Below are positions 12,589 through 62,391 of a stretch of 64,000 nucleotides of DNA, piece after piece (the first letter of the stretch is position 1; every line of letters starts with the position of its first letter). Origin of the DNA: Prorocentrum cordatum (taxonomy: Eukaryota); NCBI GenBank assembly GCA_963575745.1, contig CAUYUJ010000316.1, positions 1 to 64,000 on the forward strand. Direction: 5' to 3'. Position numbers and translations under genes: made by a program. A model generated the notes under the pieces. It did no database searches, had not been told where the DNA came from, and saw only the letters and a program-made list of their open reading frames with translations.

Positions 12589-12830
12589 ACCGTCGCCGGC
12601 ACCGCCGTCGCCGTCGCCGTCGCTGTCGCAGTTGCCGTCGACGTCGCCGTCGCCGTCGCCGACGTCGTCACCGCGGTCGTCAACGTCGACGCAGTCGTCG
12701 TCGACGTAATCGTCGTCGCCGTCGGCGTCGCCGCCGTCGTTGTCGTCGTCGTCGTCGCGGCAGTCGTCGTCGACATCGCCGCCGTCGTTGCCGTAGATGT
12801 CGTCATCGTCAACGTCGTTGTCGTCGCCGC

Positions 12831-12863
<33 letters not shown>

Positions 12864-12887
12864 CGTTGTCGTCGTCGTCGACGTCGT

Positions 12888-12921
<34 letters not shown>

Positions 12922-13005
12922 AACGTCGCCGTCGCCGTCGCCGTCGCCGTTGCCGTCGCCGCCTCCTTCGCCGTCGCCGTCGCCGTCGCTGTCACTGTCG
13001 CTGCA

Positions 13006-13036
<31 letters not shown>

Positions 13037-13241
13037 CCGGCGTCGCCGTCGCCGTCGTCGTCGTCGTCGCCGTCGTCGACGTCATCGACGTTGTCGTCGT
13101 CGATAATATTCGTATCCGTCGTCGCCGCCGTCGTCATTGTCGTCGCCGCCGCCGCCGCCGTCATCGTCGTCGCCGTCGTCGTCGCGGCCGTCGTCGTCGA
13201 CGTCGCCATCGTCATTGTCGCCGTCGTCGTCGTCGTCGCCT

Positions 13242-13283
<42 letters not shown>

Positions 13284-13287
13284 CCGC

Positions 13288-13318
<31 letters not shown>

Positions 13319-13408
13319 CCGCGACGCGCCGCCGCCGTCGCCGTCGCCGTCGCCGTCGCGTCGTCGCGTCGTCGTCGCCGTCGCGTCGCCGCCACCGCCG
13401 CCGTCGCC

Positions 13409-13448
<40 letters not shown>

Positions 13449-14070
13449 TCGTCGTCGTCGTCTTCACGGCCGTCCGTCGTCGTCGTCGTCGTCTTCACGG
13501 CCGTCGTCGTCGCCGTCGAAGCCGTCGCTGTCGCCAACGCCGTCGCCGTCGCCGCCGCCGCCGTCGCCGCCGCCGTCGCCGTCGTCGTCGGCGTCGTCGC
13601 CGTCGTCGTCCTCGTTGCCGAACAGAGGCGTGGGCCTGCGCCTCCAGCGAGAGCCGCGCCGCCCCCATGCGGTCGCCCCGGTCCTCGGGCAGCCCCCGGG
13701 CGACAGGCGGACCACGGCCGCGGGCGGCGGCGGCCGCGAAAACCGACGCCGACGGCGACGGCGCGGACGCCCGCGCGCGGGCGGCGCGCGAGCGCCGCGC
13801 CGACGACGGGCGCGCCGACGGCGTCGGCGACGGAGCCAAGAACGATGACGACGACAACGACGACGACGAGGATGACGACGACCACGACGACAACGACGAC
13901 GACGACGACGATGACGCCGACAACGACGGCGGTGGTGGCGGTGGCGGCGGCGACGACGACGACGACCACGGCGGCGGCGTCGACGACGACGGCGGCGGCA
14001 GCGGCAGCGGCGGCGATGGCGGCGGCAGCGGCAGCGGCGCGGCGGCGACGGCGACGACAACGACGAACAG
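11990..14070. repeat. ~2-kb (GTC/GCC)n array that flips to (GAC/GGC)n near 13740
   Basis: Directly visible; extremely CpG-dense. Confidence 0.95.
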
Positions 14071-14265
14071 TCGAGATCGCAATTGTTTCTACCCCGGTGG
14101 GCCTCGAAGAGGCCAGCTTGGGGCCTGTGGTCGTCGACAGGGCCGTCGACAGGCGGCCCACGGTTTCGTCCGCCTCCTCCTCCTCCTCGTCCTCTTCCCC
14201 GTCCGCCTCCTCCTCCTCCCCCTCCTCCTCCTCCTCCTCCTCCTCCTCCTCCTCCTCCTCCTTCG

Positions 14266-14287
14266 TCCGTATCCATTTTGGCTCAAG
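14266..14287 (+). other. DinoSL relic at the 5' end of the second LINE
   Basis: TCCGTATCCATTTTGGCTCAAG, 21/22 match, just after a (CCT)n tract. Confidence 0.93.
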
Positions 14288-16742: not shown

Positions 16743-16745
16743 TAC

Positions 16746-24400: not shown

Positions 24401-25568
24401 CCACGTCGTCCAATCGCTCGCAAGCACAATCCTTCATCGTCTGCACCTCCTCAGGCTGACCACCAAGGAACCCCACGTTGTCCACGTAGACATAGTGGAG
24501 AGGCTGCCCACCTGAGGTAATCAGGCGCGAGCCGCCAAACGTCTGCAGGCGCCGATCGGCGGTCGCGCCCGTGGCATCCTCCACCTGCTTGGTGACCGCC
24601 TCCTGCACGAGGTAGAGTGACCACTTGAACCCCATGGGGAGCACCGCGAAGCAGGGGTGCACCCAGCGGTCTGGCGACAGCCACTCCCCCTCAGCCTCGT
24701 GGAGGTGGAGCTCCTCCGCTCGAAGCGGCGGAAGCCCGAAGTAGCGGCTGAGCTCCACATCGATCTTGAAGCGGTAGAACGCGTCCCGCACGTCGCCTGT
24801 GCTGATGAACACCTCCGTGTCGTCGTCGACCTCGATGAGCCCTAGCGACTCGGCGGTGGCCAGCTCCACTCCGGGGGGGTCGCGAAAGCGGCGATTGCTG
24901 CGGCGAGCGTCGACCACTAGCCGCTGCATCCCCGACTTCTTCTTCACGCAGAACACGGTGGCGCGCTCCTTGACAGCGGTGCACCACCGCAACACACCAA
25001 TTGACTCCAGCCGACGGACAAACTTGATGTAGGCCTGTCGATCCCCCGACAAGTTTCGGTCCATGTAGGGTGTGACCGGCTCCGAGTTGTCCTCCAGCTC
25101 CCAAAATTCGATGTCAGGCCTGACCATACGTTCTTCAAAATCTACCAGCATTGATGCAGCCTCAGCTGGCACCACATCGACCGCGTAGGGACAGTCCTTG
25201 CACGACGCGGGTACCGACAACAGCTCTTCCTGGTAGTCGCTCACAATGTGCTCATCCGAGTCGTACCCGGCTCGGGAACGCAGAAGCGCGCGTGCGGCTT
25301 CATGCGGACGAGGTACAGCATCAACAGCCTGAGAGCGCTCCATCACGCCCTTGATGTGCTGGACGGCCTCGGCCTGCGCCGGCGAGCATATCCCCTCGGG
25401 GGCCGCCCCACCGCACCCGCTCAGCCAGTTCAGGGTTGAAATGGCATCATTGGCACGACGAGTGATGGCCTGACGACGAGCGACTCGCTGACACACGCCT
25501 CGGCTGAGACCAGGACGGCGAGGCCCCTCCTCTGCCAGCGGCGGCAAAGGGAAGACCTCAGGCTGCAT
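21489..25568 (-). CDS. pol: RT-RNase H, continuing in frame to a C-terminal C5 cytosine methyltransferase domain (about 21489-22240)
   Basis: Likely ATG at 25568 (MQPEVFPLP). RT: QRLVVDAR, DVRDAFY, VLPMGFKWS, YVDN. RNase H: VATDAC, IHILEA, FLGDN, NPADGPSR. MTase: EDVYSGCGG, ATPCHTLSRAR, ENP, DFCQFGTRWRKAT. Confidence 0.9.
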   Translation of the reverse strand: MQPEVFPLPPLAEEGPRRPGLSRGVCQRVARRQAITRRANDAISTLNWLSGCGGAAPEGICSPAQAEAVQHIKGVMERSQAVDAVPRPHEAARALLRSRAGYDSDEHIVSDYQEELLSVPASCKDCPYAVDVVPAEAASMLVDFEERMVRPDIEFWELEDNSEPVTPYMDRNLSGDRQAYIKFVRRLESIGVLRWCTAVKERATVFCVKKKSGMQRLVVDARRSNRRFRDPPGVELATAESLGLIEVDDDTEVFISTGDVRDAFYRFKIDVELSRYFGLPPLRAEELHLHEAEGEWLSPDRWVHPCFAVLPMGFKWSLYLVQEAVTKQVEDATGATADRRLQTFGGSRLITSGGQPLHYVYVDNVGFLGGQPEEVQTMKDCACERLDDVGLSTHERVEAQTQSEVLGVAIDGGKGMVSTSLKRMWKVDSLLTWLLDRGVASGHQLESTVGHLTFIFMLRRPLLSVLSATYQVIRSAGGEQVDLWPSVRAELSAARALLPFAFAQWRLPWHGEVVATDACPTGWGVVESSWSDKNVKQVGRVDERMRFRVRQDMAHRAHALAGSRDALEDKFTVYVPKGTNDPNEYWEEDPKFPDISPDWIHEAPWKFVYAGRFCRREAIHILEAKGMIWALRRLAKRPGIGGRHVVFLGDNMGQILAFCKGRASDFQMNICCRRWCALSLALNIRCHVRWVPSELNPADGPSRRYEPGHKRPKPDAVAGADPAAAGSARGSAPVEQRAQCCTEGVGYSVGSTAEGDPASAEERADLAAGEAEEAEYGAGEAGPLLGGGRRPRPLVPGDEGRGGEGRPAVRGGDGGVRAGLRQARSLARLHGGGRFRPDRGVRREVLQRHGRERRALPAGGHQGPPPGVRASWDPSASPRPPCPPGLGPPGSWAVAAPRGATGVGGPDGGAGAGGLPHDGHRDAGRACDLRAAWGDSRAEGEVAHPPVVERGSPLGVRHPAVRGAEADQGGDLRRHRHLGQRGGVDHAAAARAGARQERRRARLQLQLRRIPEAVQGGCEAAGAPRAGPLPAPPQRRVVGSSAAATHAGRDHEAWPLGQPQKRRPLREGRPCAGTVAAAAQKLPAVRPVVRGQPAGRDAERPRPARRTVAAAQWAFEDVYSGCGGVAAEVTKLGGRATVTDVVHGPDHDLTKNRNQQRLLNRVRTGKIKGVMIATPCHTLSRARRGRPPPLRSNEFPWGLAELSAVDMEKVRIGNLLTRFTIKLVRLCLRMKVPCIVENPLTSMFWILPEVLRFLACPQVKLERVDFCQFGTRWRKATRLMLCNIPDGVCRTLDSFKCKGRGVCSRSGRPHLELSGKAPNGKSWTLIAQPYPPRLCKKLAEVFHSCHLARSGQGLLSNLS
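22181..23509 (-). CDS. Tyrosine recombinase, overlapping pol in another frame
   Basis: Catalytic set YARPGE (R), PTKVG (K), YQLRHSGAS, RGRW, RYEKGG (Y). Confidence 0.93.
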   Translation of the reverse strand: MFVGCRLSSIPPTVHRGGTSPGTSGRSPMRLQGLTRPPPVRREDRRLLSNGRSAAQKASAIPSARPRREIPRLPRSVPISQPAKLRRLSTALVRQDRFSVEADALGRSFLETKAVGEKVDQQYVEVMEGFVQDCARLGLSLDSTEEVDFALIEVFDEKFFNGMDGSVGHYLLAAIKGLRPEFGRAGTLRLPRAHRALQGWDRLAPGQSRLPEARPVWAALMVELVRAGFRTMAIETLAALVTYARPGEIHELKAKWLIPPSSNVGPHWAFVIRPSEELRPTKVGIYDDTVIWDKEEAWTTQLLRELVRGKNGDEPVFNYSYAAYLKQFKAAAKRLGLPELVPYQLRHSGASWDRLQLRRTLDEIMKRGRWGSHKSVARYEKGGRAQAQWQRLPKSFQQFALWCEANLQDVMLNGLAPPAVPSLPRSGLLRTSTPAAEVSQRK

Positions 25569-25698
25569 CTTGAAAAAGAAGGTGAAGCTCAAGTAGGCGC
25601 CGAACGCGAGCCTGAGCTGAAACGCTGCGCCCGAAAGCGCTGCCCCTCTGAGGTAGAAGCGACTAGCAGCGGGGTCCCTGCCAGTCGCCGTCGCACAG

Positions 25699-27195
25699 CT
25701 AAGCGTCTGCCGCGCCTCCAGCCCCCTTCTTGGCGGCTGCCTTTGCCTTCGGGTTGGCGGTGGCTGCACGCACTTCTTGGGCCTTCTGGCGCTGCTTCTC
25801 AATCTCGGCTTTCTCTTTGGCACGGGTGGCCACGTGAGCGGTGAGGGCTGGGGCGATCCCCGCCGTCCGCTGCTGATGGCCTGACCACAGTTCCTCATCC
25901 TCAAAGCGCCCCTCTCCTGGACCACGACTGGCCGCGTCCAACAGCAGCTGCATCCTCCTCGCCAGCACCTCGAACGCGGCCAGCGACGCGAGGTTGAGCT
26001 GATCGTAGCACCCGGCGTGCTCCAGCAGGCGGCACATCGCCTGGAGCTCGTACGCGAGGCGGTCCGAAGCGGCGATGCGGTTCTCGACGAGATACTTGTG
26101 ATACCACTGCATCGGGGAGCCTCCAGTCCTCTCAATGTTCTTCGCCATCCACAGCATGGTGCGCGGGCCCTCGACGGGCCAGTCCTCATAGAAGCTCTCG
26201 TGCATCTTGGCGACGGCATCCTTCCACGAGCGGAACCTCTCGCCCTGCTCGTCGTACTGCACGGACAGGGTCCTGGCGTCGTCAAGGTCCAGCTCAGGCG
26301 GCGCGCTCGCAGGGCCAGGCAGAGGAGGCACAGGTGCCGCAGGCCCGTCGCGGGCCATGAGCGCGGCAATGTCCTTCCAGCGCCTGGCCCCAAAGCCAGG
26401 CACGTCGTCCACGTGGAGGCGGTAGAGCACCACGACGTCCTCGGCGGTCCGACCCGCGGCAGGGGTCGCGGCGACGCTCACCAGCATCCGATCCCCCAGC
26501 CTGCGAGCGTCCTTCTCGGCAAGGATCGTCGCGACGGTGAACTCGGTGCCGAGAGGGAACGAGGAGCTCGGCTCGCCAACGACCCAGCGGTAGTCCTTCT
26601 CGTCCTCCACGATGGCGGTCGCCTCGGCGGCGACAGCCTCCTCTCGGGGTGGAGAGGTCTGGGTGCCCCCCTTGTCGTCGTCCTCGTCCTCGGGCGCATC
26701 CAGCACAATCGGTGGCGCCTTACCCCGCCCGCGGCGGGCAGGAGCACCTCCCAGCCGCCAGAAGTCCTCCAGCGCCAGCACGCGCCCGTCCCACTGCTGC
26801 GTGTGGAGCGGCGCGGGCAGTGGCACCTCGCCAGCGGCGAGCGCCTGGCGCGCCAAGTGCCGAGCCTCGATCACCTTCTCGCGGAGCTCCCGGGCGCCGA
26901 TCTCACGTCGGAACCGGTACCTCGGCGAGGCCACGTGCCGAGGAACCCCGCCACCAGGTGCCAGCACGATGAACTCCTCGATGTCAGGGCCTGACAGACA
27001 TTCAGGCATCTGGTCGCCGTCAGGGGACTCCGTGATCCACTCCTCGAAGCTCACCGGCCACAGGCACACGCGCTCGTGCAGGAGGTCCTCCCCGGCGTCC
27101 ATGTAGCGCACCAGGATCCTACTGCCCGGCATCAGCCCTCTCAATGACGCCGCCACCCCGGAGGGCAGGGCGCCTGATCCTGCTGCCACCAGCAT
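25699..27195 (-). CDS. gag-like ORF of the YR retrotransposon
   Basis: About 500 aa, protein-like (HERVCLWP, WPVEGPR, YDQLNLASLAAFE), in the gag position upstream of pol. First ATG at 27195. Confidence 0.75.
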   Translation of the reverse strand: MLVAAGSGALPSGVAASLRGLMPGSRILVRYMDAGEDLLHERVCLWPVSFEEWITESPDGDQMPECLSGPDIEEFIVLAPGGGVPRHVASPRYRFRREIGARELREKVIEARHLARQALAAGEVPLPAPLHTQQWDGRVLALEDFWRLGGAPARRGRGKAPPIVLDAPEDEDDDKGGTQTSPPREEAVAAEATAIVEDEKDYRWVVGEPSSSFPLGTEFTVATILAEKDARRLGDRMLVSVAATPAAGRTAEDVVVLYRLHVDDVPGFGARRWKDIAALMARDGPAAPVPPLPGPASAPPELDLDDARTLSVQYDEQGERFRSWKDAVAKMHESFYEDWPVEGPRTMLWMAKNIERTGGSPMQWYHKYLVENRIAASDRLAYELQAMCRLLEHAGCYDQLNLASLAAFEVLARRMQLLLDAASRGPGEGRFEDEELWSGHQQRTAGIAPALTAHVATRAKEKAEIEKQRQKAQEVRAATANPKAKAAAKKGAGGAADA

Positions 27196-47555: not shown

Positions 47556-50500
47556 TCACCCTTGCGTGGCGGGGGCGTCCTCCGGAGCCCCGACCGCGGG
47601 CGCCGTCTCGGTGGAGGCGGAATCCAAGGACTGGGGGGCCTCGGCCGAGGGGGGCTCCTCCTTCTTAACGACGGTGGAGGACTGGCCGAAGTTTGCGAAC
47701 AGGCTGGCTGGCGGCGGCGGCGCCGACGCCGACGCTGCGGCGGAACCGGAGCCCGAACCGCCAGCACAGTTCTTCGAGATGGCCTCCTCGATGTTGCAGA
47801 TGCACTCCAGAACCTTGGACTCCTCCTTCGTGGTGTACCTCTCCATGTGCGTCTTCAGCGTCCTCAGGCGCATAGCTGCGGTCCCGTCCTCGACGCATTG
47901 CACGCGCCAACCGAAGATGGGTTCATCCCCAATACCCATCTCGCATACCACGTAGCCCGCGGGGATGAACACCACAGAGTTGGGAGGCACGGTGCCCTTC
48001 ACGAAGCAACCAGCGTCATGCATCGCGGCCTCGACCTTCACAATCTCTGCCCCGCTAAGCTCCATCTCGAAGAAATCCTCTGCGATGTTGGAGACGGTGT
48101 TGGTCTTGCTCACCTCGACGTCGCCACCGTTGAGATTTCCCATGCAATCGTAGACGAACTCGTAAGGCGCGCACACAATCTCACGACTGCCCTTGTACTG
48201 GTAGCGGATGTTGCCGACGCAGTGGTGCTCGAAACCAACGGACATCATGTCTACGTTGCAGCCCCACTGGCTCAGTGGTGGGGATTGCTTCATCGCGATG
48301 TTGTCGGGGACGAAGGACATCAGCGCTGGCGCCAGCGTGGCAGATACGGTTGGGAGCACTGTGCACTGCACCTTCTTCCGCTGTTTGACTTGCTCTGTTC
48401 CTGGCATTTGCGCCATGAAAGTCGTAGTCGAGGTCTTCACGTGAGGCTTCAACGCAAGGCTCAGAAGCTCGTTCGCGTTCAGGACCACGTACGGCTTGGT
48501 CTTGTCGAGGGTGTTGTTGCGATGGGCCTCGGTGAGCTCCTCCAAATTTCCGAAGCGGCTCATCTTCTGGCAAAGCTCCACGAGCTGGCGGCCAGCGACG
48601 TCGCCCGTGGCGCCCGTGTTTTCCTGCGGCTGGGGTTGCAGAAAAGGCAGAGTCGCCTTCTGAGGCGCAGCGGCCGCCGTCCGCCCAGCCTGCCCGGCGC
48701 CGTTCGAACCTGTCCTCGCCCTCTTGCTGGCCGTGGCGGCGGCGGCGTTGTCGGCCTTGGTCTGAGCCCTGGGAGGGTGTAGTAAGAAGCATTTAGTTCA
48801 GTTTTCAGCTCTGAATCGGCTCTGAAGTCAGGAAAAAACTCCCCCCCTCCTCCTCCTCCATTTCCTCCTCCTCCTCCCTCCCTCCTTCCCTCTCCCTCCC
48901 TCCTCCTCCCTCCTCCTCCCTTTCCGTTTGAACTTCAAAAACATCTGCAAACCTTTGGATGATTGCGAACAACAATCGTTAAACAAGTGTGACCTCCTCT
49001 TCTGCGTCCGCGAAGTATCGACGGCCTTGGACAAGGCCTGCACGCCAGTCTTCACACGGTCCACCAGCTCCTTCGACTTTTTCACGGCGTCCATCACCTG
49101 AGCCTCGAATACCTTGAGGCTCTCCTCGTTCGCCTCGCAGATGTGGTACTCGGCCATCACCGACAAGATCACGAAGGGCTGGCACTCGTCGAGGTCCTGG
49201 ACAGGTAGCGTCTCGCCATCACGAATGAATTGCGCCTGGGCTTCCTGCCACTTCAGAAGAACAATGTGAGCAGACTTCATGTTCATCAGCGCGCGGTCTA
49301 CGACGGCCGGATCCTCGAGAACCTTCTTCGTGGCATTCGCCAGATAGTTCACGATCGTCCGGACGCTCGCTGCCCCCATCCAGCTCCTCACTTCCCGGCG
49401 TCCTTCTAGTGTCGCCCCGTCTCCTTGAGCTTCATCCCGCGGATCCCGCGCCTCGTTCAGGATGTCTTTGATGGCATCTGGGACGTTTGACTGATGTTCG
49501 GATGAAGTCTTCTTGAGAAAGTCCGCGGCCCTGGCGAGGGACGCGAATGTGCTCGATTCAGCCTTGACCTCCTTCTCGAGGTACGCGTCGTCTGGCTTCA
49601 AAGACAACGCCGTCAGGAGCCCCATCCTGGCCTGGGCTGTGGCGAGCTCGTCTTTGAAGTCGTCGGTCTCCGGTCCTGTCATCTTCTCCTTGACCTCCTT
49701 GTACTTCGTGCACACATCAGCCTCGAGCTTAGTCGCCACCTGAATAGCTGCGCCCAACTTGCGGCGGATCTTATTCAGGTTAGTTCCGAAATCGAACGTC
49801 GCTTTGCGCCGCTTGGCGCCGCCAGGACCAGTGCTGCCGCCAGGATTGTCTGTGGGGGACACCTCGGAAGAAGGAGCACCTGGAGGCCCTGCCAGCGGCG
49901 CCACTAGCGGCGCCAGGTCAGCCGCCTCCTCGTCCTCTCCCCATGCTGCCTCAGGCAAGGCCCCGAGCTGGCCATTCGACGGAAAGTGGCGCGTGCCGTC
50001 CGGGGCCGACAGCGTCATCCCGGCCGCCACCGCCTTCGCTTGCCCAAACATTGAATCGGCGTCGGCCTCGAGGAACTGCTTCTTGACATTGCCGCTGCGG
50101 ACAACCTCTGCTCTTTGCTCAATCTCCTTCTCTTTGACTTCGTAATTCTCCATCTCGATGCACATCCACTCGATTTTCTCCCCAGTGACGCGGTCGGTGG
50201 TGGTCGACTTGTGCTCTGGCTTGGTATTGCCCGCGACGTATTCCCACTCCAGCTTGCACCGATGCGCCGACCATCCGTACTCGGTTTTGCAGTGGTTGGC
50301 AAAACCGAAGAATGTCTTCCAAACTGCCTTTCCTCCAGTCACGTTCCTCTTGATGATAGCATCCTTCCTGAAAAACTGAATGGCGTTGAAAGAAGCAGTT
50401 TTTTGGCCCCGCCCTGCTGACTGTTTGACCGTGTGGGCCTGGGTAATCATCTGCAGGAACAGAGGAGAGAGCTCCTGCTTGGCTTTCGTGAACTCCTGCC

Positions 50501-50756
50501 ATTCTTCACCTCTACCTCCTGTTTGCTTTTTCGTCTCGTTGGTGACATTGTTGACGGTTTTCTTGTGCTCGGTGCAGAAGCTGCTCCCCTTCACCTTGAC
50601 GCAACCGCAACCGATGGCACATAAGTTTTCAGTTGCATTGGCAGGGGCCCTCTGACGGCGAGCGCCAGCCGGCGGTTGAGGTGGCGGAGGCACTCCACGA
50701 GCCTCGTCAAGCCCCTCAGGTTCGAACTGGAGCGCCTGCGGAACGTTGTCGCCCAT
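47556..50756 (-). CDS. ~991-aa protein: N-terminal C3H Zn finger, coiled coils, C-terminal JmjC/cupin-like beta-helix
   Basis: Exons 50756-48994 and 48768-47556 are joined in frame by a 225-bp GT-AG intron (AG|GTCACA...CCCAG|G). Motifs CAIGCGCVKVKGSSFCTEH, YQYKGSREIVCAP, TVPPNSVVFIPAGYVV. Start codon uncertain. Confidence 0.75.
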
Positions 50757-51457
50757 GACGGCAGGCGGCCCGGCCGAAGTTGTGCTGCGTAGTTGGTCGA
50801 ACAAAAGGACGCTCTCTGAGGGCAGCCCTCAGCAGCGTAACTGGCTGGCTTCTCGAGCTAAAATCCTACGCCGAGACGACGAATCGGACGACCAGTCGGC
50901 GCAGTGAGAGAAGGCAAGACCCTTGACCTTCCAATTGAGACCTTCGTGGACGTCGTTTGGCCAGCGCATGGCCAACAAGGCTGAGGATGCAGGGGCAGCC
51001 TTGCGGGATCCCTGCATCTTCGTTACAGTTTTCTCCGACCTGCTCCTCCTGATCTTTCCTACCACTCCTTCTCCCTCCCTCCCTCCCCCTCCTCTCTCCA
51101 ACCTCCAACCCTTCCTCATTCCTATCATCATCCTCTCAGGGTCCCTGGCTGCAGCCATACACAGAGAGCGTTTTTGGGGCTGGCAAAAATGGAAGGAAAC
51201 AGAAGTAGGAGGAGGAGAGGAGAAGGCGAAGGAGGGGGAGGGGGAGAAGGGTGAGGAGGGGGAGGGGGAGTATCAGGAGGAGGAGCAGGAGGAGGGGGAG
51301 GAGGGGGATGATTGGTTGTTGTTTGTTCGCTATCGCTACATCCTGGCACCGGGACCGACTCCACGCACAGCGCTGCACCCCATACTGTGAAAGCTCGGTT
51401 GGCCCCGGCGCCGGGCATAAATTTCTGGCCTTGCCAAGGCCCGAAGGCCTGAGGCCA

Positions 51458-53737
51458 TCAGTCTCCGCCCAACCCAGCAGCAGCCAAATCAGGCGTTCCG
51501 AATTGAAAACTCTTGCGCAAGGCCTTGGCCGGTTTATCTGGAGTGGCGACGCGCTTGCGGCACGAGGGAGGAGTGCTAAAAACCTCAGGAGTCTCAGGAG
51601 TACCCAAAGAAGTCGACTGAAGAGAGTCCTCAGTCTCCTCAAGGTTTGGGTCCTGGTCCGGGCTCAGCTTTTTAGCAAGCTCCTCGAGAATGGCTTCGTC
51701 CCCCACCCAGCGGACAGAGCCCAGCACGAAAAGGATGATGTACCCGATCGACGGCTCGTGCATAGCGTTCCCTGCAAGGTCTTTCAGTTCAGCCTCTGCC
51801 AAGGTGTCGAGGACATCTTGAAAGGAGCACCTGAAGGGGTGCCCCTCCTTCTGGTTCTCGAACACCGGCTCCCCCATCATGGCGAGGTGTTGCAGACCGC
51901 CTGCAATTTCATCGGTCGTCATGTTCACGAGCGTCCCGTGGTGACACAAGCAAGGGAGGAAACAACTCTTGCTCCCAAACTTTGGGCTCTGCTCCACATC
52001 AACAATGAAGCTGCCGTCGAAGCCCTGGTACTGTAGCATCTCGGCCTCATAGGCGCGCTTGTGGGTCATCGCATACGGGGGCAGGCATTTGCTCACCGGG
52101 ATGTGCTGGTGCGGCGCGAAACTGTTGCCTTGAGTTGCGGCCTTCTGCGACATCACCTCCCGAGTGTACTCGCGAGGCGCGTCCCAAACACACTGGGGTG
52201 AGGCAACAACTTTACGACCGAACATGCTGAAGAAGTCGTCCCACGAGCGCCCGAGGCAAACAACACCCTTCAGGGTTAGAATGGTGAACTGCCTTGGCCG
52301 CAGCATTGGGAAACCAAGATCCACTGGGGACATGACGGCATGCGTGATCCGCGAATGCCAGAGTGGCATGAAAGGAATGTGGCGAATTCAAGGGCTCCCT
52401 CGAGGGCGCGAAGTTATTCGCGCTTCGCGCTTCGCCGTCCTCCTTCCTCCTCCCCCTCCTCCTCGTCCTCCTCTTCTCCCCTTTGGGAGGGCGGCGCGAG
52501 GGCGCGAAGTTATTCGCGCTTCGCGCTTCGCGCAGCGCGAAGCGCGAACTTAGGAGCCCTTGCGAATTGTTCGCCTTCGAATGAGATAGCGATGGGTGGT
52601 GGTCGGCGGAATGGCGCAGCCATACGGATGTCGTAGACGTGCCCGAACTCCTCGTGCAACCAGCGCCGCGTACATGGGTCTGGAGTGATCTCATGAATCA
52701 CCACATGCGGGCGCTGATCTAGAACGAAGGCGACCCATACCTTCCATGCCCTCATCGAGACTCCGGCCGCTTTCTCTCTCTTGCCACGCCTGCTGACTTC
52801 CTTGCAGACGGTCCCGGCAGACCATATGGTCAAAGGGTCTCCGTCGCCGACATTGGTGCCCATCATCGCTGTGAGCGGAACTCCGGTGCTGTGGCACAGG
52901 CACGGAATGCGATCCTTGAAGATAGGCTCCTTGCTGGCCCGCATGACCACGCCCATCTCCTCGTAGGCCGCCTGCTTCACGTCATTGGCGGCCTCTTCTG
53001 CCGGCGTCAACGTGTCCAGTTGCTCGCGCATGTGATCCGTCAAGAGATCGTTCAAGTCGGAGACGACGTGCATGGGCCTGGAGTCCCCGGTGTGCGCCAT
53101 CAGCACCTTCTGAGCGCACTCCTTCTTCTCAATGGCCAGGCCAGTCTTCATCAGCGGGCGGCCGTGATGCGTCAACAACATGCGATTGTTGTCGAAGACG
53201 TGCTTGAGCTTCCCGAAGGCCGACATCGCCGTCCCCTTCCCGGCGTACTGCTCGTGTAGGAAGACACCGCGCTTCAGATTGAGCTTCAGCGCCATCATGA
53301 ATTCCTTGTTCCCCACAACGGCCTGAAGCGCAGGGGGCCAGGCATCAGGCTGCGCGGCTCTCTCTCTTAGCTAAGAATCGAAGAAAACGCGAATTCAGAC
53401 GTCGTCTGATCCCTGCACCCGCAAAACATATGGCGCCATGCCCCCTGAAAAAACATTGGGCACCGCTGGGGGTCGACTCGTTGCCCCCTGAAAAACATGT
53501 TGGGGCGGAGGCGTTTGTTTTGGTGAGAGCGCGCGATTCCTTCACCCCGCCCAACGCCTGATAGGCGCTGATCGGCCAGGCGAATATGTCCGTGGTGCTC
53601 GCGGGGCCGGGCAACAGGTGCTCGCGGTCATTCCACCAGTTCAGACTGCCCACCCGGTGAGAGCGAATCATCAGCTGGTGCACAGGTGGATCAACTGCAG
53701 CCGCCATCTGCCCATGGTTGCCTGTCTGGTCTGCCAT
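51458..53737 (-). CDS. C5 cytosine DNA methyltransferase (~587 aa), interrupted by a 281-bp insertion
   Basis: Segments 53737-53558, 53322-52630 and 52348-51458, with a GC-AG intron at 53557-53323. Motif I EQYAGKG, II IEKK, IV SAGTVCKEVSRRG, VI VIHEIT, VIII DLGFPMLRPR, X LAGNAM. Confidence 0.82.
52349..52629. mobile_element. 281-bp insertion (MITE-like or non-canonical intron) in the methyltransferase
   Basis: Flanked by a GAT duplication. Contains the IR CAAGGGCTCC/GGAGCCCTTG and a 35-bp direct repeat (52401-52435, 52497-52531). Removing it restores the frame (YD|ITHAVMSPVDLG). Confidence 0.65.
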
Positions 53738-54165
53738 GTAGGGCAAGCAAGATATTCCAATAACGAAGGTGAATCTCAGCTTCTGGGCAAAATGGCAGCG
53801 CTAGGAGGGCCGGAGAGGGTCGATATCCAAACTGGCCTTCAGCGATGCTTCAGTAGCCTCGGGGGTAAGAGTACCCCCAAAGAGGATGGATTTGAGGTTG
53901 AGGAGGACCTCAGGTGCCCGCGGCACACCGTCTCGCGAGGCCGCCCCCTGGAGAAGGGCGCCCTGCGGCCCAGGCCGCGACGCGCGAGGCGCGATTACCT
54001 CCGCGCGCCTCGGGGGGGGGACCTGCCCCAGGTCGCATCTTCGGCATCTTCCGGCCGCCGGTCTTGGGGCCATCTTGGAGTCCTCTTGGGGCCCTTTTGG
54101 GGCCCTCTTGGGCCCTCTTGGGGCCTTGGGGCCCTTTTGTGGAGCCCTACACCAGAAAACTGACA

Positions 54166-54874
54166 AAAACATTGAAAATCACCGAAAACCGCTGAAAACA
54201 GCGAAAACGGTGAAAAAACATTCGAAAATTTGAAAATCACCGAAAACCGCTGAAAACAGCGAAAACGGTGAAAAAACACTCGAAAATTTGAAAAACATTG
54301 AAAACCGCTGAAAACAGCGAAAACGGTTGAAAAAACAAAAAAAAAACAAAAAAACAAAAAAAATAAAAAAATGCGCGAAAAATTGTTTTCCAATGGAATT
54401 CATGCGAAACCGCCGGGGCGGAGTTTCGAGGAGTTTCGAGCTGCTCGAAACCGGTTTCGAGCTGCTCGAAACTGGAGCTCGAGCGCAGTCGCCGAACCTT
54501 AAGGTTTTCATGCTTTTAGAGGCCCCCCGCTCCCGGGAAATGTTTTGCCAAAACATTTCCCGGGAGCGGGGGGCCTCTAAAAGTATGAAAACCTTAAGGT
54601 TCGGCGACTGCGCTCGAGCTCCAGTTTCGAGCAGCTCGAAACCGGTTTCGAGCAGCTCGAAACTCCTCGAAACTCCGCCCCGGCGGTTTCGCATGAATTC
54701 CATTGGGAAACCAATTTTGGCGTTTTTTTTGTTTTTTTTTTTTTTTTGCTTTTTTTTTTTTGTTTTTTCAACCGTTTTCGCTGTTTTCAGCGGTTTTCAA
54801 TGTTTTTCAATTTTTCGAATGTTTTTTCACCGTTTTCGCTGTTTTCAGCGGTTTTCGGTGATTTTCAATGTTTT
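54166..54874. repeat. ~700-bp palindrome with a 1-nt loop at 54548
   Basis: Core arms 54390-54547 and 54549-54706 (158 bp, one G-T mismatch). Outer arms are A-tract/T-tract units, with one extra ~58-bp unit on the left. Confidence 0.97.
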
Positions 54875-55579
54875 CAATGCTTTTGTTTGTTTTCGGGTGG
54901 TTTCACCCCCCTGGGAGGGCCCCAAGACGGCTCCAAGAGGGCCCCCACGAGGAGGGGGAGACAGGATGAGACCCCAAGAGGGCCTCTAGAGGGTCCCAAG
55001 AGGGCACCAAGATGCCCCTGGCGATTTGGGGGTGCACCCCCAAATTGGGAAGCCTCCGTTGTTCAAGTGTGGTGCCCATCGGTTTGCTTGCATATTGATT
55101 TCGCATAGCAAAGACCATGTTTTTTCGCCCAAGCCGACGTGACAAAAATGTGCGGACGGCTCTCATCGGGAAACCCCGGGAGGAGGAGGGAGGAGCCTGT
55201 AACGGGCGACCCGCGCGGGTCACCCGGCACCTCTGGCACGGCGTGGGCCTTCCTGGCTCTGGCACGGCGTGGGCCTTCCTGGGCATCTCCCAGGCCCCGA
55301 AGACGGCTCCAAGACAGCCCCAAAGAGGCCCCAAGAGGGCAACAAAGGGGGGCCCTCCTGCCCGCTGACCTCCCTCCGCCCTAGGAAGAGGGGCAAGGGC
55401 ACGGCAGGGGGGCGGAGGGGGGCCAGCCCTCCTCCTCCTCCTCCTCCCTCCTCCTCCTCCTCCTCCTCCTCCTCCTCCTCCTCCTCCTCCTCCTCCTCCT
55501 CTCCTCCCTCCTCCCTCCTCCCTCGCCGCCCTTCTTTCCACGCCCTCTCTTCCTTCTCTCCTTTTTTATCCCAGTCTAA

Positions 55580-58500
55580 TTAAGAGCTGGAGCTCTGGCT
55601 ACCACTGCTAGAACTCGAGCTGTCACTGCCACTAGATGCGCTAGCAACCTTCCGCGACTTGGGGCCCCTGCCCCGTTTACATGCAGGCTGCTGCGATGAC
55701 GCAGTGATTTTCCGCTTCTGCCTTGCAGGAGGCCTTGGCTCATGATAAGTTGGATCAAGCCTACCGACCTCCAGCTCCTTCATGGTGGGCAAGCCAACGA
55801 ACAACACACTGTTGGGGATGTCCATGTGCACGTCTCTAGTGGCACAATCCATACACATGTTGAGCCACCGACAGCATGCCCTCTGAACGTTCAGATCTTG
55901 AGGGCCATTCACTTTGCCCCTGAAGCTAATAGTCCGCGTGCATCCCGTCCTTGGCTGCCCTGGCTTTTGGTGAGCACTCTGTCGGCAACATGTCGCCTTC
56001 CACGTGCTCGGAGGGATAAAAGCTACATAATGAGGGCCCCAGTAGAATGATTTCTCGTGTGGTGGATTTCGGGAGAAGCGTGTCGTAGCTGGGGTCTGAG
56101 TCTTGCGACTCTCGTGGCTGACGCGCGCCGTCGCCGCCGAGCGCGGGGCGGCGGGGGCGGCCCCCCCAAGGCACTCGTTCACAGCCTTCTCAAAGTCGAT
56201 AGCCCTCTTACTGGCACTGGCGCCCGCCTTGGCCTCGGCCTCGGGCTCAGCCGTTGGTCCAGGGTCCTTCGGCATCGGCTTGTCGAGCTTCTCTGGTCCA
56301 GGCTCGGACTCTGTCTCCTTGGGCTTGGGCGGCGGGCCCTCGCCGCATGGCGGCCCGAGCGGCGCAACGGGCGTCCATGTCTTAAGATCCTTGCTCTTGG
56401 GCTCGGCCTTGCCCGGCTCTGCAATAGTCGGCGGTTTCATTGTAAAGCCACCGTCGTCATCTACGGTAAGACGTTTTTGCTTCCTTGTCGGCGCAGTCAC
56501 GCCGATCTTGACCAGGAGGTCGTTGTAATAAGCCGAATCCCGGAAGTGCTCGATACACTCGATGCCATGGTCGCGAAGCTCTTGCCAGAATGCCAATGCC
56601 AACAAACACGCCCTGGAGGGCACTCCCGATGCCCTCCACCAGAAGACCTTGGGCATCTTCTCTTGGCTGATCATTGTGGGCGGAACTCTCTCGCGGAACT
56701 TTGGTATCTGGATAACCCACCCATCGTTGCGTATCTTCTCGATGAGCTCCCAATTGGTCATGTCCTCCAACGCCACGTCACTTCGGCCCTGAGTCACGGG
56801 CCTGGGATTAGACAGCGTGATGGAGCACCTAATCGACGAAGCCCCTTTCTCTGTGATCTGCCACGCTCGTCGTGTATCGCCATGCTCTTGGCGCGGCAAC
56901 TGTTTGACTGCGCCCTCTGATTGCAACTCCTCCAGCATCTCGTGAAGCTCGGCATGACTGTCGACCTCGATGTCAAGCTCCAGCGCTCGAGGTTCTTGCG
57001 AATCGTCTTTCGACTCCCAAGCCTGGGCGGCCATGCACGCTCCCAGCGCTGTAGACGCCCGCTTGCCGTCGACCTTCGAGTTCGATGTGGAGTAGGCCAA
57101 GCACGGGTCCCTGTCCCATATTGTGATTGATTGCACGTCCACGGTGTCATTGAGCATGTAAGCAACGCTCTCCCGCTTGCGGTGTTCGGCAGATGGTTGC
57201 AAGTCGATGGTGAGTTGCTCTTTTCTCGCATCCGAGGACGTGATATCATGAACGCAGACTGCCTTGGAGCGTACGGACAGGCCAGTGTCGAAGTCCGTGT
57301 GAGCCCTCTTCATCTTACTTGGATTCCTCTGTGTAATCCGAAAAGCGAAACACTTCGACTCTGGCTCCACAATCGCCTCTTGGGTCCCCTTGCAGCCAGT
57401 GCCAAGGCCATTCTGCATGAGATTCCCGTCATCCTGCTCGAACTCCAAGATCTCGGCACAGTCCAACTCGGCCATGATTTCTGCAAGCACCTCTGGTGGC
57501 AACTCAGCGTCACCACCAACGCCTACTTCAGTCATCTCGTCCACGAGCTCTACGTAGCAGGTACCCGGGTCTCTGACATTAGGTCGACTGAACAGTGGCT
57601 CGAAGATGGAGGCGCCAGTGGAGGAAATGCCAGGGCACACCACAGTGTAGAAGCTCCCCGGGCCTGCGGTATCTTCGAAGTGGGCGGCTTTCAGTTGGCG
57701 GAATACCTTACCCAAAACTTCCGAAATGTCAGCGTCACTATTCGTAGCAAATTTGCCGCCACCGTCGCTGCCGCCCTTGCCTCCTCCTGGGCCCCCAGTC
57801 GGGGGCGGCGGCGGCGGCCCGCCGCTGCCGCTGCCTCCGGGTCCATGTCCACCTCCGCTCGGGCCTGGCGAGCCGCCGCCGCCCGGGCCGCTGGCTCCGG
57901 GAGCTCCGTCGCCACCTGGCAGGTCTGGGCCCCCGCCGCCGCCGCCTCCTCCTGGCGGCTGACCCGGCCGCGTGAGCGTCACTCCCTGCACGTTGGCGTA
58001 CTGCGTCGGCGCGTCGCAGCGATAAACAACCTGATTCACAACAGAATGCGGGATCGTTGCGTCCAGTCTAACGCCATTGGTCGTTGCAACCAGATAACCT
58101 TGCACCAGCGGGTGGTTCATCAGGCCCAGACTCGCTGCCACGCTTCGCCGATCAGCGACGCCCTTGACGCAATCTACGAGCTCGTCAGCGAATTCCGCAT
58201 GCGCCTCAAGAATCTCGTTCTTCCGAAGGGTCAAGCTCGCGTAAGCTGGACTGTGGTTGTGGCAAATCCTCAAGCGTTGGCTCACATAAGCGTGAAGTCG
58301 TTCAACGCCGACCTCGAGGTTGGGGGTGAACAGGAATCCGTTGCGGTAGTGGCGAAGCTCTGGCAAGTGACATAAGTCGACCCCTCTGATAAACGTAAGA
58401 ACCTGTCGACGGAGCGCACCTGTGGGCTTCCAAAAGAAAACTTGCTCCTCCTCCTCTTCCTCATCCTCCTTCTCGCAATGCTCCCCATCATCCTTTTCGG

Positions 58501-61500
58501 TTTTTTTCCGTCCGTTTGGCCATGGACCTCCCAGGGACCCAGGACTGATTCCCTGTGCCCCCGCCAAAAAAGAGTGAGGTGAAAAGAGGGTGAGGAGGGG
58601 GTGAGGAGGTGGGAGGTGAAGGCGGAGGTGAAGGCGGAGGTGGAGGAGGTGAAAGAGTGGGTGAGGAGGGCGACCAACCTCCGATCCATTTTGGAATGGG
58701 AGCCCTGGGCGCCCGGCTCCAGCAACTCACGCGTGATAGCATGCATTCGAGTGCGCTGGTCCAGAGTGCACCGCTGATACTGCGCCACACATCTCGCCAT
58801 GCCAAGGCGCGCCCTCCGTTGGTCAACATGTCCGAGGACGCATAACTTCAATGGGAGAGCTTGCCAGGCATCCGTCTTCACCCGCAAGTGCAGCAACATA
58901 CGTTGCTTACCATACTCGAAGTCAAGCGCGAGGGTAGCCTTCTGCTGCTCAGAGATCCTGCGGCAATGCAAGAAGAGAAATTCCTGGCATGCCTGGTCCA
59001 CAGTTGCATCGAAAAATGCGTCCAAACCTCCATCGGCAATCTCGGGGCACCTTCTCCCGCGCATGGGGCACTGGCACTCAACGCCGTACCCATGATTGGC
59101 AAGCACCTCCTTGATGTGCTTGCTGTGACACCTGCATGACTGACACCACGCGCTCATGTGCGTAAGCACGCTGTTGAGGGAATGCAGCAAATGAAGGAAT
59201 GCCCAAAAGTAGTGAGATGACAGCGACACATCCACGGTACGTGCAATGGAGCCAACAGATTCGTACCTGGGGGACCGAGGGATCCAGATGCATGCGCTCG
59301 CTCCGCAAAGAGCCTTCCCCATTTGTGTCAGATCCCAAAGGCCCAAAACAACGCTGACCCAAACGGACCAAACTGAAACTGACCGAAATGGTCAACCCCC
59401 CCCAGAAGCAATTGGAACGCGAAATCCCTCGAGATGGAATGGCGCATGCATCTCGCCCCCTCGGTACTTGCCATCGCCATCGGCGTCGGCGAGACCAGCC
59501 CCGTCTCGCTCGGCCTCGCCCCGGCCGCGGTCCAGGAAGTTGACCAGATTCCAGGTGGAGCGGATCACCTGGGCGCGCGCGCGCGAGACAGGCAGACGAG
59601 ACCCCCGGAGGAGGAGGAGGCAGGAGCCGTGACCTCTTCCCTGTCGAGCAACCACGACGAGACGGTCTCCACAATGCCCCACGCTCGCCCGCCGTCGAAC
59701 GAGGGTGGACCAGAGCTGAACTTCCAGTGCAGCGCCTGTGGCACCAAGGCGGTGTTGTAGAGCTGCCTGTTATATGGAGCGTGGAAGAAAGAAACGACCT
59801 TAGACAGCGGCTCCTTCATTTCGCCCCAAGTGTCAAGGCTCGCCAGCAAGCCCTTGCACATATTGTCAACCAAGTGGAACGTTCCAGGAATGTACAAAGA
59901 CCTCAGGAATGAGATGCGACACCCAGCTTCTGCGTCCACGAATCCGTCGTCATCTGTCATGTGCATATCTTTCCAATATGGAAAAGCCTCGTCCACTGAG
60001 ATCTCCATTGTGTTGATGTCCATCTCGGTCCCCATATCTGCGCAGATGCCGACGACGCAAGATGCCAATTGAACTGAGCTCGCCCATGTGTCCGTCTCCA
60101 GGCGTAAGCTGTGGCACACCGCATGCATCTTTGCAGCCAGACTGCTCCTTCGGGTGCCTAGAGCCGTAGGTGGTAGAGTGTGCTGTACGATCTTGGAAGC
60201 AAGCTGCCATCTCAGGTCCTCGTGTACCTCGCAGTCGGCCGGTGTCTCCACTGCGTGTTGCATCATGCGACTGGCGACGTCGGCGCACTTGTCGAGATCG
60301 TCTCCAGAAACGACCTGCAGCTCGCACAACTCCCAATTGCGACCACCTTGGGGGCTGGAGTCGATCAGAGCAAATATTACAGGCCGAACATCGGCAGCGA
60401 GCAGCTTGGCATGGCGACGCCGGTTCATGATCATGAACGCCGCGTCGACGCAGAGGCGAGCGCGGGACGCCGTCGCTTCTGATATGGTAGCAGTTCCAGA
60501 TTCAACCATGGCCTTCAAACTACCGCGCCACACGGAAGGTAAAAGGCGGAGAGCCTGTCGAAGAGAAGTCTGTAGCGCACCAGCGGACCTCAAGTTGAAC
60601 GACAGAATAATACACTCTAACAGAAAACCAGCTCGGTACTGCACGAACTTCCCTAGCTCCTCGTTCCAGTCTCCCCTTCGGCATAACATGATAGACTGAT
60701 TGATTGCACGTTCTTCGCTGCACTCGTGGTCTGCTGCCCTGAGCCAATACACAATTCTCTCAAGCTCGATCCTGTCACCGGGTGAACCATGCACTATGCT
60801 GTTTGTCCATCGGACAAGGGCGTCAGCGATGTACCCCAGTTTGCCACTCCTCGATACCCCCGTCGAGTTCAAGGTGTCCAGGGCCTCAGTTCGGAGAGCG
60901 ACGTGGCGGTCCTTGCATTGGCTCCAGCGCTGCATGTTTCCAATGTCGTCTTTGATCCCGCGCATGTCACTGCTGATGTCTATCCTAACTCCAGGCGGTA
61001 ACGCAAGCAACTCCCACGCGCCAGAAACCACCAGCTTGGCCGCAAAGCAAGGCAACATCAATGTTGACGATGGAGCGGCACCGTGTACCAAGTTGTTGTT
61101 TGGAAAGTAGTCCCGCCAAGCACGAACTAGATCCCCCGCCCGTACCCCGTGGGACGTGTGTGCGGCGAGGGCCTGTTCAATACTGTATCTGGATAACCCA
61201 ACTATAGTTGTATTCATCGAGCAGCCTCCACGTGTGAATGAATTTACGTTCACATCCAGCTCAGCGGCGGCAAGCACGCGCCAGAAGCATGCCTGACCAG
61301 TGCAACCCATGGCGGCCATGACTGTTTTCTGTGAGAGCAGATGTATATCCATTTCGGACCTACATGCGCGATCCAACTTCAAGGCCACGAGCCCAACGAC
61401 CTTACCGTGAGCTTCAGCCCACATCCGCTGGCACATGTCCATAAAACTGGGCTGCTCTTCCCCGCCCCAATCACATAGGATGTCCAGCAATTGGGTCTGG

Positions 61501-61601
61501 AGGGTTTGCTTTGCAACTTTCGGAAGCCCGAGTTCGGGGCTTTGGTTTTCATCACGGAATCGCCCTGGAAGCCCCGACACCCAACACAACCTCACAGTCA
61601 T
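55580..61601 (-). CDS. ~1820-aa DDE (hAT-like) transposase, 4 exons
   Basis: Exons 61601-59634, 59568-59468, 59266-58713 and 58419-55580 total 5463 nt in frame, with introns GT-AG 65 bp, GT-AG 201 bp and GC-AG 293 bp. Candidate catalytic LIDSSPQ (D), CADMGTE (D), PGTFHL, RAWG, VERLHA (E). Also CQSCRCH, CPMRGRR and a C-terminal Cys/His cluster. Start codon inferred. Confidence 0.8.
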
Positions 61602-62007
61602 CCTATGGGCTGGGATCCCTGCAAAGGCCAAAATTGCTGCGTTGTGGCAGGGGCAGGGGAGGAGGAGGAGGAGGAAGGATGCACCTCGCCTGCGCCCTGC
61701 GACACCCCGGGCTCGCCCCTTCCATCGTCGTCGTCCTCCTCTGGGACCCACTGAGGCCCCGCGGAGGCCCAGAGTCACCGAACGCTCTCCGTCCAAAGCT
61801 TTTCACGGCGCGAGGGTGTCTGGGCTGGGGGGTCAAGCCGACCCCTCAAGGACCCATCCAGGGATGCTCCTGGGCTGAGAATCTCGAAGTGGATCCAGCC
61901 GCGGCGGCGACGAGGGCGCCCTGGGAGGCCCAAGTCCAGAAACCTCAGACCTCGGAGCATGACGACGACGACGCCGCCGCCGACGACGACGACGACGGCG
62001 GCGGCGG

Positions 62008-62039
<32 letters not shown>

Positions 62040-62391
62040 GCGACGGTGACCGGCGGGCCGCAAGCGTCGGAGGTCCCTGGCCCTGGCCCTGCCCCTCCTC
62101 CTCCCCCTCCTCCCTCCTACCCCTCCTCCTCCCCCTCCTCCCTCCTACCCCTCCCTGCCCCTCCTCCTCCTCCTCCCCCTCCTCCTCCTCCTCCTCCCTG
62201 CTCCTCCTCCCTGCTCCTCCTCCCTGCTCCTCCTCCCTGCTCCTCCTCCTCCCCGCACTTCATTTTCCTCCCTGCTCCTCCTTTTCTATCTGGCGATGCG
62301 CGATCCAGTGAATCCGCATGCCCCCGCCCGCTGGGTGAAAGTTACTACGTTCCCTCCTCATTTCCTCCTTCTCCCTCCCTCCTCCCCTTTC

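Follow-up and report, generated by a model that had tools for sequence, protein, structure and literature searches.

We describe here a putative C5 cytosine DNA methyltransferase (MTase) gene that lies within an apparent DNA transposon in a stretch of 64,000 nucleotides from Prorocentrum cordatum (contig CAUYUJ010000316.1, positions 1 to 64,000), which is referred to below as the window. The coding sequence (CDS) of the gene runs on the minus strand from 53737 to 51458, and the element that encloses it extends over 15,682 bp (46666..62347), with its long open reading frames (ORFs) and the MTase gene all on the minus strand. We propose that a 587-aa DNMT5-like C5-MTase without an SNF2 ATPase, encoded by a transcribed gene, moved as a passenger when this element last transposed by a cut-and-paste mechanism, and we regard this reading as probable. 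The window as a whole is GC-rich (~0.55-0.75 in 2-kb steps) and eukaryotic in character.

The Methyltransferase Gene and Its Transcript

The structure of the gene is seen in contigs of public sequencing runs that were aligned to window positions 47400-54160, among which the spliced contig comes from run X1 only. This contig (1941 nt, depth 8, 0 mismatches) is split on the window into three pieces that abut one another (53785-53556, 53320-52627, 52345-51329), and its translation gives a single 587-aa ORF that begins with the ATG at 53737 and terminates with a stop that ends at 51458. The initial annotation had delimited the gene by 51458..53737, and these prove to be the true ends of the CDS. 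The transcribed span is 51329..53785 on the minus strand, with a 5' untranslated region of 48 nt and a 3' untranslated region of 129 nt. The first CDS exon (53558..53737), placed by the spliced contig and its translation, opens with the ATG and is followed by intron 1 (235 nt, 53323..53557). The second (52627..53322) carries motif I (YAGKG), a family-specific insert of ~140 aa, motif IV (GTVC) and motif VI (HEIT), and is separated by intron 2 (281 nt, 52346..52626) from the third (51458..52345), in which motif VIII (PMLRPR), the target-recognition region, motif X (GNAM), an acidic, low-complexity tail and the stop are found.

In the genomic DNA the motifs are split over two minus-strand ORFs in different frames (53316-52510 and 52369-51458), with the ATG at 53737 in a third, upstream ORF (53746-53345), because the two introns divide the gene. 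An ORF in need of repair, as had been supposed at first, is therefore not what lies here, the breaks being introns that are absent from the spliced contig. Both exon-intron borders are covered by the DNA-like run X5 (52595-52747 and 53474-53765), and the introns are therefore present in DNA. Runs X1-X4, which belong to one study, contain a fraction of 0.74-0.75 of the words of positions 51300-53900, which equals the exon share of 1941/2601. The X1 contig may alternatively come from an allele free of the insertions rather than from splicing. Taking the contig as spliced, the MTase gene is intact and transcribed, and it has three exons. A gene model drawn by eye, with GT-AG introns at 53545-53323 and 52625-52324 and a product of 584 aa, was rejected, as it would lose ~10 residues that are conserved in homologues and the spliced contig gave other junctions.

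Short contigs ~90-96% identical to exon 2 (at 52997-53303) are also found in run X10, which bears another organism label. The differences listed change 8 codons, 3 of them synonymously and 5 not, which is too few for a ratio of nonsynonymous to synonymous substitution (dN/dS). They could stem from a paralogue or a close homologue, or else from a related organism that has this element.

A Divergent Family With a DNMT5-Type Catalytic Domain

The five C5-MTase motifs listed in the initial annotation are all where it had placed them on the minus strand, with YAGKG at 53247-53233, GTVC at 52815-52804, HEIT at 52695-52684, PMLRPR at 52309-52292 and GNAM at 51772-51761. Their order, I-IV-VI-VIII-X, is unpermuted, and the G-x-G that binds S-adenosylmethionine (SAM), the catalytic Cys, the Glu, the R-x-R and the G-N are all there. 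About 85 aa (~85) lie N-terminal of motif I, and the insert of ~140 aa between motifs I and IV contains a conserved Cys.

The protein belongs to a sizeable family. A word-indexed homologue search with the exon-2 ORF (ORF A) at near length gave no homologue among 1048 candidates, and an exhaustive HMMER search with the same query against 1.84 billion representatives returned 108 hits at E<=1e-3, of which 28 were at <=1e-10 and 5 at <=1e-30, with a best identity of 46%. Full-length members have 500-600 aa, and most members are on short, transcript-like contigs. In alignment A1, which comprises 23 family sequences, the window protein has the family residue at all 11 of the nearly invariant columns, which include the motif I Gly, the motif IV Cys, the motif VI Glu and the motif VIII R-x-R. 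At motif VI the distant members of A1 have a plain ENV or ENS, where the window protein has HEI.

A comparison of the A1 profile with the PDB gave 29 matches at E<=1, and 27 of them are C5-MTases, in agreement with the initial assignment of the gene to this class. The best match is the DNMT5 chain 7r76_A (E 9.3e-22), aligned over profile positions 215-491, that is, from motif IV to motif X, and further matches include M.HhaI (2.1e-9), DNMT2 types (1e-6 to 2.5e-5), HaeIII and DNMT1 (0.04). The DNMT fold, the absence of which had been named in the initial annotation as counterevidence, is predicted for a member of the family, as the model of the nearest full-length relative has a Rossmann-like catalytic domain together with a target-recognition domain. 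In the ESM Atlas the PF00145 set makes up 26 of the 30 nearest clusters for exon 2 and 25 of 30 for exon 3, with top scores of 0.95 and 0.94, respectively. Pfam finds PF00145 at E<=0.01 in 9 of 36 relatives, above the 22-bit cut-off in 2 of them, and no other family in any; the PF00145 gathering score is an operational criterion of one model and not of the fold. A longer relative, P0116 (2031 aa), the only one of its kind found, combines PF00145, PF00176 and PF00271, which is the DNMT5 architecture (E 1.4e-21). The possibility that the motifs are chance matches in a protein that is not an MTase, to which the blank Pfam and single-sequence PDB searches could be taken to point, is rejected, since the evidence from the profile, the language model and the fold all points to C5-MTases. 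We conclude that the window protein is a divergent member of a C5-MTase family whose catalytic domain appears closest to DNMT5 among the DNMT classes, a conclusion that shares the confidence given above to its transport as cargo. On these comparisons, the divergence of the motifs is a trait of the DNMT5-type family and not decay, and substitutions specific to DNMT5 in motifs I-V are described in the accessible part of Hoguin et al. (PMC9998398).

A different view of the same features is that the protein is catalytically dead or acts on something other than DNA, either as a pseudo-enzyme that binds DNA or methylated DNA or as an RNA m5C methyltransferase like DNMT2 or DNMT6. Its motif IV is without the Pro of the usual P-C, its motif VI reads H-E-I and not E-N-V, both the profile and the fold comparison return DNMT2-type chains among others, and an SNF2 partner domain is missing, while DNMT5 depends on its ATPase according to the available portion of PMC9998398. 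The DNMT5 chain in the profile alignment, however, has T-S-C at motif IV, and it is with DNMT5, a DNA enzyme, and not with DNMT2, that profile and fold match best and align over the greatest length (372-377 residues, the target-recognition region included). The near invariance of the Cys, Glu, R-x-R and G-N over 23 diverse members also argues for retained catalysis, and a dead or non-DNA enzyme seems unlikely to us.

The search for further loci made for alignment A2, which holds the close relatives, found a relative in 1 of 53 candidate stretches from metagenome contigs and in 0 of 17 from viral contigs. The one locus (L001, 1583 nt) has no flanks. Its positions 1-1583 encode the relative P0002, read through the position of intron 2, and lack ~80 target-recognition residues present in the remaining full-length members. 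This contig is probably a transcript, and possibly one that is alternatively spliced.

Borders of the Transposon

The borders of the element were identified by a script that sought exact inverted 10-mers flanked by direct repeats between 40 and 64 kb and that returned one pair, and by direct reading of the sequence. The left terminal inverted repeat (TIR; 23 nt, TAGTAACTTTCACCCAGCGGGCG) is at 46666..46688 on the plus strand, and the identical 23 nt recur on the minus strand at 62325..62347 as the right TIR. The two are perfect over 23 nt, and a perfect 8-bp target site duplication (TSD), CGTTCCCT, abuts the outer side of each, at 46658..46665 on the left and 62348..62355 on the right. With up to 3 mismatches allowed (<=3), the 23-mer has exactly 2 matches in the window, which are inverted, and none of 100 shuffles had 2. 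Likewise, 100 order-1 Markov resamples contained no inverted pair of at least 14 nt with a TSD of at least 6 and no inverted 18-mer pair of any kind. Between 46 and 63 kb, the 23-nt TIR pair is the sole inverted pair of at least 13 nt with a TSD of at least 3 nt, and among the exact inverted pairs of at least 13 nt in this interval there is none that would define an inner element enclosing the MTase gene alone. The early proposal that the gene is cargo of a cut-and-paste transposon is thereby upheld, as the perfect TIR pair and TSD that enclose it have no counterpart in any of the 100 resamples. From these borders it follows that a unit of 15,682 bp was inserted in one piece with the MTase gene inside, and the perfect ends and TSD suggest that the last transposition was recent.

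It could be argued that the TIR/TSD pair does not delimit a single unit and that two related short elements inserted by chance near each other, or a rearrangement, left the MTase as a resident gene between them. No transposase is recognized inside the element, one copy is seen in the window, and the interior contains other repeats (a palindrome, satellites and a miniature element). Independent insertions, however, would each bring their own TSDs, whereas here the outer 8 bp are identical on the left and the right, and no partner ends were found, with the 23-mer occurring only twice in 64 kb. The subterminal tracts also speak for one unit, since an (AGG)n tract at 46782-46959 and a (CCT)n tract at 62094-62252 form a mirror arrangement ~120 nt inside the element ends; these tracts may belong to extended subterminal regions. 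We therefore hold two separate insertions or a rearrangement to be highly improbable, and the single 15,682-bp unit is retained in what follows.

As to its superfamily, the element resembles hAT transposons in its 8-bp TSD, in its 23-nt perfect TIRs that start with TAG and in having all genes on one strand, TSDs of this length, short perfect TIRs of this kind and a one-strand gene arrangement being hAT features. TSDs of 8 bp are also made by the P, Zisupton, Novosib and Merlin superfamilies. Pfam detected neither a BED finger nor a transposase or dimerization domain of hAT type in it, and its 15.7 kb exceed by far the usual size of hAT elements. By TSD length, the element may be described as hAT-like. 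The TIR 23-mer has 0 exact matches in viral contigs.

Introns and a Nested Miniature Element

The two introns are unusual. Intron 1 has seven equivalent placements owing to a 6-nt direct repeat, TCAGGC, and only one of them (53557-53323) gives GC..AG ends; a 6-nt repeat at the borders is unusual for an ordinary intron, and intron 1 may be of transposon-derived origin. Intron 2 has four equivalent placements (AT..GG, TC..GA, CC..AT and CG..TC), its borders being spanned by ATC, a direct repeat of 3 nt, and in the one contig none of the four has GT-AG, GC-AG or AT-AC ends. Its excision produces Y-D-I-T-H-A-V-M-S-P-V-D, which agrees across the junction with relatives that are uninterrupted. In alignment A2, 5 of the 11 close relatives (P0001, P0003, P0004, P0005 and P0009) end their match right after Y-D/S-I/F/L and look like unspliced genomic ORF calls, which suggests that the site of intron 2 is an old intron position. 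Compared with shuffles, the RNA fold of intron 2 has a z of -4.75, with pairing between regions near both ends. At the extreme ends, 5 nt pair (ATCCG/CGGAT) when inspected by eye, and no terminal pair of at least 10 nt is among those listed.

Nested within intron 2 is a miniature inverted-repeat transposable element (MITE) of 174 nt (52389..52562) with a perfect 10-nt TIR, CAAGGGCTCC, and a 6-bp TSD, CGAATT, at 52383-52388 and 52563-52568. The bin that holds it (52372-52597) has a depth of 5.3e3 in run X1, 6.9e3 in X5 and 6.7e5 in X10, and loose contig ends coincide exactly with its borders at 52389 and 52562. The MITE is extremely abundant and is common to runs of three differently labelled organisms. 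Without it, intron 2 would have ~101 nt.

As reported in the available part of Farhat et al. (PMC7789003), non-canonical introns make up over 60% of those in Amoebophrya and show direct repeats of 3-5 nt as well as inverted repeats that run from end to end. Intron 2 is similar to these in its non-canonical ends, its 3-nt direct repeat, its strong fold and its length of 281 nt. It appears to differ from the introners of Amoebophrya described there, in which the terminal pairing extends over 8-20 nt, in that by eye its extreme ends pair over 5 nt, and the high-copy portion is here a separate MITE nested in the intron.

Other Contents of the Element and of the Window

The candidate for a transposase is an ORF of 743 aa (59565..61796, minus strand), which has a single relative, P0115, at 45% identity, and both contain conserved D, D and H-x-x-D stretches. 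Its AlphaFold2 model is unusable, with a pLDDT (predicted local distance difference test score) of 37.2. At E<=10, Pfam returns only one chance-level DUF for this ORF and an ORF of 354 aa. The ORFs of 743, 198, 354 and 995 aa tile 55580-61796 of the minus strand nearly without gaps and in changing frames, and one very large gene with short introns, or two such genes, may have these ORFs as exons. The 995-aa ORF (55580..58567) and a further one of 658 aa (48828..50804), both on the minus strand, gave only chance-level matches. A low-complexity block rich in Gly and Pro is present in the 995-aa ORF, the C-terminus of which is rich in Cys. None of the long ORFs of the element has PF00176 or PF00271 according to Pfam.

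A near-perfect palindrome of 671 nt (54214..54884, 94.5%) is located between the MTase gene and the 995-aa ORF. It is AT-richer and has a CpG observed/expected ratio of 1.78. The palindrome region (54166-54905) is built from subrepeats of 58 nt and of 19-21 nt, and its flanks (~53886-54160 and 54916-55360) contain 11-nt GC-rich repeats, TCTTGGGGCCC and relatives. A bin in the left flank (53954-54160) has a depth of 1.5e4 in run X5 and 5e5 in X10. The palindrome with its flanks looks like a foldback-type or satellite insertion within the transposon. The initial annotation had described the TIRs or the palindrome as CpG-rich, and this is true of the palindrome and not of the TIRs, which have 2 CpGs, the terminal 300 nt being CpG-poor (observed/expected 0.53-0.55).

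Elsewhere in the window, a 1634-aa ORF (21489-26393, minus strand), located ~30 kb from the MTase gene, gives weak signals for RVT_1 (E 0.048) and for an RNase H of viral type (E 0.0027). It had initially been thought to belong to a retroelement with an MTase of its own, which is not borne out, as the ORF has no PF00145 and no PDB match, and hhalign aligns it to the MTase family with a probability of 0.14%. A further 42 ORFs of at least 200 aa between 1 and 46 kb are also without PF00145. A 617-aa ORF (16268-18121, plus strand) gives a weak signal for an Exo_endo_phos endonuclease (E 0.0011). As judged by these domain signals, the 1634-aa and 617-aa ORFs are retroelements. Upstream of the repeat-rich half of the window, the plus-strand ORFs at 11989-14401 have similarity to a CitMHS-type transporter (E 1.1e-8) and to DUF2339 (E 6.8e-14), and these are probably normal genes of the host.

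Comparison With Known Methyltransferases and the Elements That Carry Them

DNMT5 is an SNF2-coupled maintenance CG methyltransferase, for which the structures 7r76, 7r77, 7r78 and 7t02 are available, whereas the window protein ends at 587 aa with neither an SNF2 ATPase nor a RING domain. In the DNMT5 chain aligned to the profile, motif I reads C-S-G-T-E, and in the window family it reads Y-A/S-G-x-G, in which the aromatic residue and G-x-G are kept; the ~140-aa insert with its conserved Cys further distinguishes the window family from DNMT5. The SNF2 ATPase that defines DNMT5 is absent, and hence we refer to the protein as DNMT5-like and not as DNMT5. Relatives of DNMT5 that lack SNF2 are described from dinoflagellates and other algae, namely DNMT5c and the exon-rich Dnmt5 paralogues of Symbiodinium, in the accessible parts of three papers (PMC9998398, PMC5890265, PMC12344493), and the window gene is like these forms in having a DNMT5-related catalytic domain without the ATPase and in being an intron-containing, expressed gene. 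DNMT5c, as characterized in the portion available of Hoguin et al. (2023; PMC9998398), is extended at its N-terminus by ~1000 aa that contain no known domains, in contrast to the ~85 aa before motif I of the window protein. The window protein thus has in common with DNMT5c the absence of the ATPase and does not have the long extension, by which description the two are set apart. Unlike the window gene, none of the SNF2-less forms is placed within a transposon in the accessible text of these three sources.

Mobile elements that carry DNMTs are known mainly among retroelements, and they include SymbioLINE-Dnmt, SymbioDIRS-Dnmt3, Copia/Gypsy-DNMT3 and the EpiLTRs (PMC5890265; preprint 10.64898/2026.05.21.726589, each as far as its text was available). 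The element described here is like them in bearing a C5-MTase with conserved catalytic residues. In the available descriptions, however, they are class I elements in which the DNMT is fused into pol or forms an intronless ORF and is of a DNMT3, DNMT4-like or bacterial-like type, whereas the window element is of class II, as judged by its TIRs and TSD, and has a separate gene with introns and of DNMT5 type.

A precedent among DNA transposons is Mariner-1_OLpv, a Tc/mariner transposon that resides in a marine giant virus and codes for both an EcoRII-like nuclease and a C5 DNA methylase, according to the part of PMC3627910 that was available. Both are cut-and-paste DNA transposons that encode a C5-MTase, which in Mariner-1_OLpv adjoins the transposase. 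Mariner-1_OLpv is described there as residing in a viral genome and as having a restriction-modification-like pair with a bacterial-type MTase that is strongly recognized by the standard domain model, in contrast to a nuclear element of 15.7 kb that has a eukaryotic DNMT5-type MTase with spliced introns and no recognized nuclease partner. Fungal DNA transposons that carry TET/JBP dioxygenases offer a parallel (PMC12730594, in its accessible part). In the open-access literature searched, we found no class II element that is described as carrying a gene of DNMT5 type.

Possible Function and Significance

Several observations weigh against the proposed passage of a functional DNMT5-like gene within the transposon. 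On the side of the protein, Pfam recognizes 0 families at E<=1 in the window ORFs, PF00145 included, so the check by the PF00145 model that had been suggested at the outset fails when applied to them directly. Searches of the PDB with single ORF sequences gave no DNMT match either, and the modelled fold is that of a relative with ~32% identity to the window protein. The MTase domain of DNMT5 is autoinhibited, and both the SNF2 ATPase and hemimethylated DNA take part in its release, as stated in the part of PMC9998398 available, and by analogy a form without SNF2 may be inactive or dependent on a partner. On the side of the transcript, the runs listed as containing the sequence include none recorded as RNA, the type of run X1 is unrecorded, its RNA origin being inferred from the two skipped introns, and the evidence for expression comes from one study (runs X1-X4). 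On the side of the transposon, no transposase is recognized, the 743-aa ORF having neither a Pfam nor a PDB match, and the 64-kb window has no second copy of the element ORFs. The depth of the gene in run X5 is ~0.4-3.8, which is that of the other low-copy parts of the element and not of a high-copy repeat. A looser border criterion (10-mer TIR, TSD>=6) was satisfied by chance in 7 of 40 resamples, and weight is therefore placed on the 23-nt length of the TIRs and on the 8-bp TSD.

We envisage that the element would transpose by a cut-and-paste, TIR/DDE-type reaction, hAT-like by TSD length, and would carry along the MTase gene and the long ORFs. The enzyme itself would methylate cytosine in DNA at C5, with the motif IV Cys attacking C6, the motif VI Glu protonating N3 and the methyl group supplied by SAM bound at motifs I and X. 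By analogy with DNMT5, its substrate would likely be CG or hemimethylated CG.

What the enzyme does for the element, if anything, is a separate question. A serious possibility, to which we give somewhat less than an even chance, is that it does nothing, and that a host DNMT5-like gene with its introns was captured at the DNA level, as in Pack-type transduplication, and serves the host or nothing at all, with no role for the element. The gene has two introns, one of them at the site where 5 of the 11 close relatives stop matching, which fits an old cellular intron; the family is large and known mainly from short, transcript-like contigs; and the element is low-copy. SNF2-less Dnmt5 paralogues are, moreover, ordinary exon-rich genes of dinoflagellates in the accessible text of PMC5890265 and PMC12344493. 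Captured fragments are usually partial, however, whereas this gene is complete, has its own UTRs and is transcribed inside the element, and the perfect TIRs and TSD indicate a recent move of the unit with the gene aboard.

The opposite possibility, that the element uses its own DNMT5-type MTase, which would be maintenance-like and prefer hemimethylated CG, on itself as a self-encoded epigenetic switch, we consider doubtful, and somewhat less probable still than a dead or non-DNA enzyme. In one version of such a switch, the CpG-bearing ends and the CpG-rich palindrome would be kept methylated and the transposase would gain access only when they are hemimethylated after replication; in another, the element would come to resemble methylated host DNA. 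Transposase binding is sensitive to methylation in some TIR elements (PMC3627910, in its available part), and a replication-coupled switch is therefore conceivable. Self-methylation is pure inference, and the base composition at the element ends lends no support to self-marking. Among TIR elements, Ac is one with methylation-sensitive transposase binding.

The passage of a DNMT5-like gene within a DNA transposon, which we hold to be the best explanation of the locus, bears on the relation between mobile elements and DNA methylation in general. As a rule, cytosine methylation is directed at transposons, and the cases in which they carry a methylating enzyme are few. In the accessible parts of the literature found, transposon-borne MTases are limited to retroelements, with DNMT3, DNMT4-like and bacterial-type enzymes, and to the one restriction-modification-like Mariner element in a giant virus. 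A DNA transposon with a eukaryotic-type DNA-methylating enzyme is a rare case, and a DNMT5-type gene in a TIR transposon would add a third class of enzyme as well as the other of the two classes of transposon. A natural DNMT5 catalytic domain without SNF2 could show whether this domain works without the ATPase, and in an element that is defined by its ends, palindrome and gene, self-methylation and its effect on excision would be directly measurable. If true, a self-methylating element of this kind would be the first DNA-transposon-borne DNMT of eukaryotic type.

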